Source: Gracilinanus agilis (taxonomy: Eukaryota). Taken from it: a stretch of DNA of 64,000 bases. This document shows positions 59,700 to 63,226 of the stretch, piece by piece (within the stretch, counting starts at the first letter, position 1; every line of letters starts with the position of its first letter). Made by a program: the position numbers and the translations under genes. Under the pieces are notes generated by a model. That model was not told the DNA's origin and ran no database searches. It saw nothing but the letters and a program-made list of their open reading frames with translations. The stretch covers positions 576,279,257-576,343,256 of the forward strand of contig NC_058131.1 in assembly GCF_016433145.1 (NCBI RefSeq), read 5' to 3'.

Positions 59700-60326
59700 G
59701 AGGAGAAGGAATGAGTGGAGGAAATGACATGGAGAAGGGGAGAATTTAGAGGTCTGGTAGTACTAGATACCTACTGTCGTCAGACCTAGGATAAAGAGAG
59801 AACAACATATACAACTAGAAGGATAAAATTTTCTTAAGGTACAGAGAAACAAGAAGGAAGGGAGATGGAATTAGGGATGGACTGGGGAAGGGAATACCTA
59901 TTGAAAGGTTGAGGGGGTAAGGTGAGGAGATAGAAAGAGAGTCTTGGGTCAAGATGGGAAGGGATTTTTAGAATTGAAGTCATATTAAAAAGTAGGAGGG
60001 TATAGTCAAGGGGATAAGGAAGGGATTGATGGAAAGATGGAGAGAATGAGAATTAAAAGGTAAGGGGAAAGGGACAAGGGAGGAACTTTTGGAAAGGCAG
60101 GCCAATTTGGAACTAGGAAGGCAAAGGGAGAGGATAAAGGAGAATTTGGGGGAAGGAGTGTGAATAGGAGAGATATTGGTCAAGGGAAATTGGATATCTG
60201 AGGAGGGATATGGTAGAAAGAAAGTAAGGAGACAAACAGTGAGGAGGAACAGAGTAGAAGGACATACACATCCAGTAACCATGACAATGAGTATAATGGG
60301 ATGGCATTATAATGGATAGCAAAAAG
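59700..60326 (+). mobile_element. Old L1, inter-ORF spacer and ORF2 start (left of the ERV insertion)
   Basis: Purine-rich spacer ending accatgacaatgagtataatgggatg...ggatagc, which joins the L1 endonuclease sequence at 62019. Confidence 0.6.
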
Positions 60327-60504
60327 TATGGGAAGCCAATAAGAGAATAGATAAAAATCTGAGACTCCTCTTTTGACCCCTTTTGTGATCCTTGTGATTT
60401 CTTGTTGAAAAGTATTGTGGTCTTATTGAAAAGCTTTAAGTTCCTAGCAAACCTGAATTTAAAGGGTTAACACTGTTCCCCTTTGACCAGGAATGCTGCT
60501 GCCT
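60327..60504 (+). repeat. Inverted partial LTR (first 178 nt of U3)
   Basis: Reverse complement of 61835-62012; starts TATGGGAAGCC where the intact LTR starts TGTGGGAAGCC. Confidence 0.92.
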
Positions 60505-61309
60505 TCTGTTTTGCCAATTCATCAAATTCTGATTTCCAAAAAAGGTAGTCCCCTGCAGAAAGGGAATATCTTGAGGTCTGAATCCAATCAAAGGGGGTCA
60601 TCCAAATTGCCCCCAAAGTTTCCACCAAAGTTAAAGTGTATGGAGAAGCAGGACCATATGAAGCACAAGCTGTCTTAATTTCTTTTAATACTTTGTAGGG
60701 AAGAGGCTCCCATGTAGGGGCTACTTCTTCATCATCTTCCAATTCATCTGCTCTAAAAATAACTGGGAAACAGAAAGATGTGTCTCCGTCCTTCTGAGCA
60801 TTTTTTGTTATTGCTCCTTTAAACCCTATATTCCAAGGCTGGGGCTGCAGAATTGGAGCTCCAAGAGACAGAACCTCATCTGTTTTTATCTCTCTTTCCT
60901 CTTTTGAAGAGAGGTTTTTAGGTGGGGGAAGGTCCGCTGCTAATGACTTTTTCATTCGAATTTTAAAGCTCCATTTTGATTTACTATGAACCTTTTCCTC
61001 CTCCTCTGATTCTAACACTGAAACCTTAAAGATTTCATTCTCTGCATTCTGACCAGATAACAAAGTTGTTTTTTCAGCAGCCGATGAAATTTTTTCTGGC
61101 ACTTGTTCTGATCCATGCTCAGTATAATAATTTTTCAAATCATTGCCAACTTTTTTCCAGAATTCTAAGGGAATTCATGGGCTACAATTTTGAATAAGAT
61201 CAAGAAATTTAGTGAGCTGTTCTTTACTAATTTTTACTCCCCATTTTCTGAGGATATGCTTAGTTATATCAATAAAAAGAGTTCTTTCCTTTGATTCACT
61301 GTGTCCCAT
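60467..61309 (-). pseudogene. gag: Betaretroviral gag fragment (MA, central region, N-terminal CA), truncated
   Basis: ATG at 61309 reads MGHSESKERTLFIDITKHILRKWGVKISKEQLTKFLDLIQNCSP*IPLEFWKKVGNDLKNYYTEHGSEQV (MA, TGA at 61175-77); then CFPV and WEPLPYKVLKEIKTACASYGPASPYT...DW...LSAGDYLFWKSEF (CA N-terminal domain, JSRV/MPMV-like). The last ~12 codons come from the inverted U3. Confidence 0.93.
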
Positions 61310-61447
61310 CCTGTTAATCTATTCTTTTACTTCTAGTGTCTTCCCTTAAGGAGAGAGTTCTGGAAACTCTAGATTTCTTGGCCTTCTTTGGGCAGAAACT
61401 AAACTGTCATAATTTGGGAGTTGTCTGAGGGGGAGGGCAAATATTTA

Positions 61448-61449
61448 CC
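61448..61449 (-). promoter_or_regulatory. Retroviral major splice donor
   Basis: Minus strand CAG|GTAAAT in the leader between the PBS and gag. Confidence 0.6.
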
Positions 61450-61467
61450 TGAATTCAACGATGCAAG

Positions 61468-61485
61468 GTCCCTGTTCCGGCACCA
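61468..61485 (-). promoter_or_regulatory. Primer binding site, tRNA-Lys3 type
   Basis: TGGTGCCGGAACAGGGAC versus the Lys3 PBS TGGCGCCCGAACAGGGAC (16/18), 2 nt after the LTR-terminal CA. Confidence 0.9.
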
Positions 61486-61487
61486 AA

Positions 61488-62012
61488 TGTTGAGATCTCT
61501 TTATCATCTCTGATAATCTGATAAGGACAGTTTAGTTGATAAGGAAATAACAGGATACGGAAGATCTTTTCCTCAGCTCATGCTTCCAGCTCTGGCTCCC
61601 GGAGCATGGAGTTTATTATATATGTTTCATTTCACACAAAAGAACCTCCCAAAACTTTGCAGATGTGCAGAAGTTACAAATTATGTCATATCAAAACTCA
61701 AAAAGTCTCATTGGCTTCATAACAGACCAAGGCCAAGGCTGAATTTTGACTGGGTTCTTATCAGGAAACCAAGTTGGGGAGTATCCCTCTCAGGGTTGAA
61801 TTGCCCCTGCTAAGATTTTGGCCTTGGCTATACCAGGCAGCAGCATTCCTGGTCAAAGGGGAACAGTGTTAACCCTTTAAATTCAGGTTTGCTAGGAACT
61901 TAAAATTTTTCAGTAAGACCACAATACTTTTCAACAAGAAATCACAAGGATCACAAAAGGGGTCAAAAGAGGAGTCTCAGATTTTTATCTATTCTCTTAT
62001 TGGCTTCCCACA
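61488..62012 (-). mobile_element. 5' LTR (525 bp)
   Basis: TGTGGG...CAACA termini; overlapping TATATAA/AATAAA at ~61612-61624 on the minus strand. Confidence 0.88.
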
Positions 62013-62018
62013 AAAAAG

Positions 62019-62310
62019 GACTAAAAAATCAGGACCTCACAATTTGTTGTTTACCAGAAACACACTGAAAATGAGAGACACACATAAAATGAAGGTGAGG
62101 GGCTGGAGCAAAATATACTACACCTCAGTTGATCTAGAGAAGGCAGGAATAGCAGTCATGATCTCTGACAGAGTAGAGGCTAAAGTGGATATAATTGGAA
62201 GGGATGAACAGGGTAGCTATATTATATTGTGGGGAGGTTGCTATGGATAATGAAGCATTATCATTACTGTACCTGTATGTGCCAAGTATTTTAGCACACA
62301 GATTTTTTAA
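62019..62310 (+). mobile_element. L1 ORF2 endonuclease fragment (right of the ERV insertion)
   Basis: KNQDLTICCLPETH...DTHKMKVRGWSKIYY...KAGIAVMISD...RDEQGSYIIL. Confidence 0.9.
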
Positions 62311-62880
62311 ACAAAAATAATTTTTCCTCTTCCCCAAATTCCATAGAACTTTACATGTATTTACATGGTATACATACCAGATATTTTAGTGCTTGAATGC
62401 ATTTGTTTTTGTTTTTTATAATATACATTCATACTCAATCTAGTTTCCAGGAAAAAATAGGTGAAATAACATTTTTGGGGAAAATTAATTCTATGAGAAC
62501 ACTCTTATGGATGGATGATTAGATAACTGATGTTACAATGGAATTTTGCTATTTTCAAATAAGATTTGGTTACTATGTATAACTACACGTGGAATGTGAT
62601 AGGAAAAGACATTTTCTAGAATTCTGTGGGCCAAATTCAGTAGAAAACAGTAAGTAAAGGTAAAGAGGGAAAATAATCATGATGGAGGAGAATGATAGAG
62701 GGAAGCTTCACAGGAGAATGATTACAATCAGTGTTGATCTCTGAGGCAAAGACAGAAGATCTAAAGCTAAACTGTGATCTTCAGGAAACAGACAAGAATC
62801 AATCAATCAGTCAGTCAATATTGGTTAAATGCTTACATTTCAAGGATTGTGCCAAATTTCGGGGATTCACTTGCTGGAGT

Positions 62881-63226
62881 CTTTTTCCTAGTATTTTATT
62901 TAAGATTTTTGCATCTATGTTCATTAAGGAGATTGGTCTGTGGTTTTCTTTCTCTGTTTTTGATCTACCTGGCTTTGGGATCAGTACCATATTTGTATCA
63001 TAAAAGGAGTTTGGTAGAACTCCTTCTGTGCTTATTATGTCAAATAGTTTGTATAGTATTGGGATTAGATGTTCTTTGAATGTTTGATATAATTCACTTG
63101 TGAATCAATCTGGTCCTGGGGATTATTTCTTAGGGAGTTCTTTGATGGTTTGTTCAATTTCTTTTTCTGATATGGGATTATTCAAGTATTCTAATTTCTT
63201 CTGCTATTAATCTAGGCAATTTATAT
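62881..63226 (-). mobile_element. L1 ORF2 RT-proximal fragment
   Basis: Minus strand [25 protein letters not shown]...[16 protein letters not shown]...[19 protein letters not shown]. Confidence 0.92.

Follow-up and report, generated by a model that had tools for sequence, protein, structure and literature searches.

How does a retroviral element come to be joined to host DNA by a U3 end on both sides? The question is raised by an ERV at positions 60327–62012 of the window, which is the whole 64,000-nucleotide stretch of Gracilinanus agilis DNA that was analysed. Read on the minus strand from 62012 to 60327, the element comprises a complete 525-bp LTR (U3-R-U5, with TG...CA ends; 61488–62012), a primer-binding site (PBS; 61468–61485) that adjoins the U5 side of the LTR and that we take to be of the tRNA-Lys3 type, a leader that is colinear with family copies (61310–61467) and 812 nt of gag (60498–61309). 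The last part is an antisense copy of the first 178 nt of U3 (plus strand, 60327–60504), which is inverted relative to the provirus and runs to the U3 attachment end, where the terminal TG reads TA. Both host junctions are U3 ends in inverted orientation, in place of the direct-repeat LTR pair of a canonical provirus. The element retains a PBS and lacks pol (including RT), dUTPase, env, a PPT, a 3′ LTR and 3′ R-U5. This anatomy, with its coordinates, bears out a sequence-only reading that had described the locus as an inverted-LTR ERV made of these parts. In all 11 other family loci gag runs on past the junction point, which shows that antisense U3 does not normally belong to the structure of the family.

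The gag segment encodes the matrix to the capsid N-terminal domain and is cut at the junction. It opens with an ATG at 61309, carries an in-frame stop at 61177–61175 and matches the Pfam domains Gag_p24 and Gag_p10 (PF00607, E = 3.7e-23; PF02337), and the closest solved structures are capsid p27 (E = 4e-20) and HERV-K Gag (E = 1e-5). These matches indicate a capsid of the betaretroviral type. The element resembles ERVs of the betaretrovirus type (the MMTV, M-PMV and HERV-K group) in its Gag capsid, in its TG...CA ends and in a 6-bp target-site duplication, the length described for MMTV (PMC12789967, PMC9410886). A provirus of that type has one U3 and one U5 end in direct repeat, whereas the window element has two inverted U3 ends and is without pol, env, PPT and 3′ LTR.

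The element interrupts an L1. Copies of AAAAAG lie directly to its left (60321–60326) and right (62013–62018), flanked by the start of the L1 ORF2 region (plus strand, 60150–60320; 66–81% identity to L1 paralogues) and, continuous with it, by the ORF2 endonuclease region (plus strand, 62019–62290; 81–84% identity to 39 paralogues). A Pfam scan of this right flank gave no result. Counting one copy of the 6-mer, the spacer between two L1 anchors is 17 nt in the window against 15–16 nt in the 6 of 11 paralogues in which both anchors were found. The sequence-only reading was therefore right that AAAAAG stands on both sides and that the L1 becomes continuous when the element is removed, and the interrupted L1 is otherwise intact across the site. 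A second L1 ORF2 fragment, assigned by eye to the RT region, lies just to the right of the interrupted L1 (minus strand, 62811–63104).

Six base pairs is also the commonest duplication of this family, being found at 19 of 29 canonical proviruses and 16 of 26 short-LTR loci (solo LTRs); each set contains two duplications of 5 bp and eight unmatched loci. Processed ends, a direct repeat of family length and an intact target together identify the window element, as judged from its sequence, as a concerted insertion made by integrase. Known one-ended integrations of ASLV and HIV likewise involve truncated viral DNA, sometimes with viral DNA added in either orientation (PMC5041404). Their second end is made by the host, usually with large duplications or deletions (PMC5041404, PMC2857682), whereas the window element has two attachment sites. 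It also shows none of the marks of a one-ended aberrant event (a host-made end or a long duplication, deletion or inversion), having instead a direct 6-bp duplication within an intact L1.

The same one-ended events lend some colour to an origin in more than one step, in which two insertions in opposite orientation, or an ordinary provirus later altered by inversion, deletion or copy-back repair, came to show an A-rich duplication by coincidence. The duplication of the window is indeed A-rich. We nevertheless regard such an origin as very improbable. The L1 here, and the repeat around a second such element described below (L050), are continuous across their sites; copy-back repair would run into an inverted copy of the left flank rather than a direct 6-bp repeat; and the aberrant proviruses described in PMC5041404 usually carry much longer duplications or deletions.

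The two inverted arms speak to the same issue. They differ at 4 of 178 nt, and through one of these differences the short arm has TA where its terminal TG would stand, which is unusual in that 114 of 115 U3 copies have TG. Both arms carry a rare letter at U3 position 95 that is found in 2 of 115 other copies, and hence they are likely to come from one viral template, which again argues against two separate events. The four differences, together with the continuous L1 flanks, make it most improbable that an LTR was folded back on itself during assembly. One sequencing run, possibly of the source sample, contains a contig that matches exactly across the left flank and into the arm for 24 nt, its private TA end included, an overlap below the bridging limit; none of the contigs listed for that run bridges the inner junction between gag and antisense U3, which would be in keeping with an artefact. 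Against an artefact, elements built in the same way and flanked by exact duplications are present on five chromosome-scale contigs (C1, C2, C4, C6 and C7).

The family to which the LTR belongs is abundant. The 22-nt U3 terminus of the window LTR has 2060 exact copies in the genome (a reversed control has 0), and ordinary LTR-internal-LTR kin of the window element are present in the same genome. In a longer LTR subtype, of which there are 213 starts, the LTR extends 148 nt further upstream than the short one. This subtype is preceded by a PPT of its own, contains the PPT of the short LTR within its U3 and makes ordinary solo LTRs. A virus with the long LTR thus has two nearby plus-strand primers. 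A further upstream-PPT variant of the LTR is seen at L157 and L019. At two loci that have the same left flank (L058, C1:265524070; L062, C1:473413634), the long LTR stops after 137 nt at the internal PPT and gives way to unrelated sequence, and no second element end was found within 1.5 kb.

The two-U3 arrangement recurs. At least eight further insertions of this kind have a 6-bp duplication, which is perfect in seven, as in the window (L016, L052, L050, L008, L121, L125 and L155), and contains one mismatch in the eighth (L203, 5/6); two more (L134 and L150) have an antisense U3 end and no matching duplication. The seven further perfect duplications are of varied sequence, which counts against coincidence, whereas L134 and L150 may themselves be products of more than one event. 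The smallest elements consist of U3 against U3 (L016, 246 bp) or of a 215-bp two-U3 element whose junction is covered by a CA/TA microsatellite of about 90 nt (L052, 1499–1713). L050 and L008 each consist of a long LTR, gag and an antisense short U3, L121 and L125 were found among the long-LTR starts, and L155 was found among loci with an LTR followed by gag.

A different arrangement is present at L199 (C1:476346215, minus strand), where 95 nt of long U3 and 134 nt of antisense long U3 enclose about 4 kb of other DNA, and where the flanks are inverted over 4 nt, with no direct repeat. This locus is ambiguous and may reflect an inversion or copy-back repair; having no duplication, it too could have a multistep origin. 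Upstream of the L008 element (L013:9400–10000, L008:1–500) is a fragment of an unrelated retroelement that has an AT-rich low-complexity stretch and, by eye, a protease-like reading frame. Two other interpretations of L008 were rejected: it is not the tail of a tandem provirus, as no LTR occurs in the 21 kb upstream, and it does not have an end extended by 51 nt, as that end is the long-LTR start.

Frequencies were estimated from two sets of loci. From 100 listed of the 213 long-LTR starts, 94 were examined (six on small contigs were left out) and the two that had supplied the pattern, L008 and L050, were excluded. The remaining 92, of which 16 were viewed with only 1.5 kb of flank, include 3 two-U3 elements, 53 solo LTRs with a duplication, 2 3′ LTRs and 34 undecided cases (L199 among them). 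The second set comprised 39 other LTR-gag loci, of which all 29 on chromosome-scale contigs were followed, 28 for about 9–10 kb and L008 to its end; of the 29, 4 terminate with antisense U3, 20 reach a U5 end and 5 are truncated. In addition, one convergent U3 pair occurs among the first 100 short-U3 termini listed, and searches by spacing found two loci at gaps of 181–241 nt and none at gaps of 411–471 nt. Since the spacing searches covered only these two ranges, the census of two-U3 elements is partial. When the U3 arm or the L016 element served as a DNA query, the ranked matches were solo LTRs, with no further inverted copies among them.

The junctions and arm ends indicate how these elements may have formed. 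In the window, gag and the antisense U3 have in common the 7-nt sequence AGGCAGC (minus strand, 60498–60504). A switch at a short AGGC had been proposed from the sequence; the microhomology is indeed there, and its length is 7 nt rather than 4. An exact overlap of 6–9 nt is present at all nine readable junctions: 7 nt in the window, L050 and L121; 6 nt in L008, L155, L150 and L016, mostly longer if a mismatch is allowed; and 9 nt in L134 and L203. The junctions of L052 and L125 are not exactly readable and stand outside this count. An overlap of at least 7 nt has a chance of about 0.0008 per junction.

The shorter arm is 39–424 nt long and stops inside U3 in 11 of 11 elements, which fits a growing plus strong-stop DNA. 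Moreover, L008, L050, L121 and L203 begin on the left at the long-LTR start and finish on the right at the boundary of the internal PPT, a position inside each element's own LTR that becomes an end only by plus-strand priming. The internal PPT is also where the left arm of L203 and that of L125 terminate. The longer arms of the gag-bearing elements reach about 0.9–2.8 kb past the PBS and none extends into the 3′ half, although the sample favoured 5′ sequence. The possession of two PPTs was considered as a requirement and rejected, as a single PPT is all that the canonical kin of L155, L134 and L150 possess. A hot spot predicted at the longest inner inverted match of the LTR, which would give elements near 470 bp, produced 0 matches.

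The two U3 termini, the direct 6-bp duplication, the junction microhomology, the origin of the arms in one viral template and the recurrence at independent sites point to a model in which reverse transcription yields two plus strands, each primed at a PPT, that become joined through an inverted microhomology to give a DNA that integrase then inserts. We give this model a probability of about 0.7. One plus strand, after the second jump, would have copied U3-R-U5, the PBS and then leader and gag for about 1 kb. A second plus strand, also primed at a PPT but short, with 178 nt of U3, would pair over 7 nt with the 3′ end of the first, and each paired strand would be copied to the 5′ end of the other. 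The expected product is a blunt linear DNA with a U3 attachment site at both ends, which integrase would process and insert with its normal stagger. Alternatively, the short strand could switch onto genomic RNA and then undergo a normal second jump, a route that would yield the same product and is indistinguishable from the first here. In Ty3, a single PPT has been described as priming plus strands repeatedly (PMC5371799). The model is drawn from integrated copies, with no intermediate observed. Also to be set against it are the empty hot spot near 470 bp, the fact that a second PPT is not required, the antisense U3 ends of L134 and L150, which have no matching duplication, and the chance that short arms were left when the host deleted parts of long inverted repeats. 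Two suggestions of the sequence-only reading thus gain support, namely that integrase used two U3 ends, on the strength of the termini, the direct duplication and the independent sites, and that a template switch in reverse transcription is the most likely origin.

The same ends, duplication and microhomology would also result if one U3 end from each of two separate viral DNAs were inserted by a single intasome, leaving two free molecules for the host to trim and join by microhomology-mediated repair. In support of such pairing, MMTV strand-transfer complexes have been assembled in vitro on paired viral ends, their activity being assayed with U5-end mimics (PMC9410886). This alternative does not account readily for a shorter arm that never leaves U3 in 11 of 11 elements, nor for the four elements that pair a long-LTR end with an internal-PPT end, or the two junctions that fall in that PPT. 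The lack of two-U5 forms among 23 resolved mirror loci also counts against it and fits the plus-strand model. These loci come from 27 other 3′-LTR loci on chromosome-scale contigs, a set that omits 12 on small contigs: a sense 5′ LTR is present at 22, 1 is truncated and 4 run into N gaps. Antisense U5 ends therefore number 0 in 23 resolved 3′-LTR loci, against 4 antisense U3 ends in 24 resolved 5′-LTR loci, an asymmetry that is not significant (p = 0.06). Two-U5 searches by spacing likewise gave 0 loci at gaps of 181–241 nt and 0 at gaps of 501–561 nt, and the matched search found two U3-U3 loci versus no U5-U5 locus. Laxer integrase action at U3 could account for the asymmetry, and RSV integrase is described as less strict at U3 (PMC12789967). 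Such laxity would favour U3-U3 products under two-molecule integration too, and could hide two-U5 forms. On balance, we consider the use of two viral DNAs unlikely.

Joining of two plus strands during reverse transcription would make each element a separate accident, whereas a mobile family would consist of copies that descend from one another. Allowing up to two mismatches, the window junction occurs at two places genome-wide, the window and L050, which have different duplications. The sequence-only reading had proposed that independent loci with the same junction and different duplications would reveal a mobile family, and L050 satisfies the letter of that proposal. It is better explained by reuse of one microhomology, because L050 has no rare gag letters in common with the window, ranks only 41 of 50 in identity to it and has the other LTR type (a long LTR, with arms 92% alike). 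In a gag tree of 51 rows the two are not sisters, although the data do not reject a tree constrained to unite them (p-AU = 0.098). The other two-U3 junctions seen are all different, and the elements sit on more than one LTR subtype. The junction of L016 had no second occurrence in the 40 that were scored out of 999 candidates.

A self-propagating or helper-dependent family would nevertheless have a conceivable route, in which RNA of a two-U3 element captures the plus strong-stop DNA of a helper through its antisense U3 and passes the junction on, like a copy-back defective genome. The second occurrence of the window junction, beside another duplication, would suit this idea, as would the fact that all seven gag-bearing two-U3 elements fall, with four label changes, in one weakly supported group of 13 rows, and that the clade of the window and L050 is formally tenable. 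The divergent gag sequences of these two loci and the diversity of junctions make it very unlikely. Scarcely more probable is a wider version, in which some two-U3 integrants propagate as copy-back-like defectives, the product is a general and overlooked one that converts an LTR element into one with terminal inverted repeats, and the window element and L050 form one lineage with gag reshuffled by recombination. Capture of the helper's plus strong-stop DNA, just as doubtful, would then let the junction be inherited while both ends are renewed. One gag lineage contains two-U3 elements at 4 of 8 LTR-gag loci versus 0 of 21 others (p = 0.003; an 85/85 branch). This enrichment was noticed after the tree was made and may reflect age, and we excluded it from the evidence.

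Thus, the earlier suggestion of an undescribed non-autonomous class is not supported, given the different junctions and several LTR subtypes, and the sequences do not show the shared descent expected of a MITE-like or LARD/TRIM-like family. Among the cis elements for retrotransposition (PBS, PPT and 3′ R), the window element has the PBS only. Because it has neither PPT nor 3′ R-U5, ordinary retrotransposition is not expected under the standard scheme outlined in PMC12789967, and because pol is missing as well, the element is predicted to be a dead end. It is also predicted to escape collapse to a solo LTR because it lacks direct repeats, and this persistence may explain why 4 of 29 LTR-gag loci are two-U3.

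Several known systems resemble the window element in part. TIR DNA transposons, MITEs and DIRS elements have inverted terminal repeats, and MITEs combine these with a duplication around a short or defective core. The repeats of the window element are instead retroviral U3, there is no transposase or tyrosine recombinase, and nothing indicates that one element was amplified. Autointegration circles of Moloney MLV reportedly carry an inverted viral segment, and their breakpoints lie at LTR termini, whereas the element described here is chromosomal and its inner junction, which shows microhomology, falls in the middle of U3. Misalignment in reverse transcription, as we propose here, has been held responsible for defective HIV-1 proviruses that have asymmetric LTRs or inversions, and an exchange of plus strong-stop DNA between genomes has been proposed for the asymmetric LTRs (PMC9278108). 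Those proviruses keep direct-repeat LTRs with deletions, and the relevant portions of that paper describe no inverted terminal U3. We found no description of two-U3 proviruses in the open literature, a scope outside which most older and subscription papers lie. These elements represent a real, recurrent and apparently undescribed variant of the retroviral integration product.

The two-U3 set can be read as a fossil record of a side reaction of reverse transcription, amounting to about 3% of insertions in one LTR subtype, and it shows that an integrase can complete concerted germ-line integration with two U3 ends and no U5 end. It also makes the handling of plus strands testable, including the number of strands primed, their stall sites (such as the internal PPT) and their pairing partners. 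Annotation tools that expect direct repeats would miss two-U3 elements or might label them as MITEs. Assays that use LTR primers would misread such proviruses if two-U3 products also arise from HIV or from the retroviral vectors of today.

Other loci of the family show structures of their own. L131, L132 and L138 are ordinary proviruses with matching duplications in which the 3′ LTR is longer than, or different from, the 5′ LTR, and the internal region of L132 also contains an antisense LTR fragment. L069 (C1:785705011) and L070 (C1:785730777) are near-identical 3′ ends of long-LTR proviruses with the same flank, 25 kb apart and inverted, and are probably a segmental inverted duplication. Finally, L146 (C2:183318654, minus strand) consists of an LTR and 0.9 kb of leader and gag that stops within gag at a 7-mer resembling a U5 end, directly before a matching 6-bp duplication, possibly through a deletion into U5 or the use of a gag-internal end.
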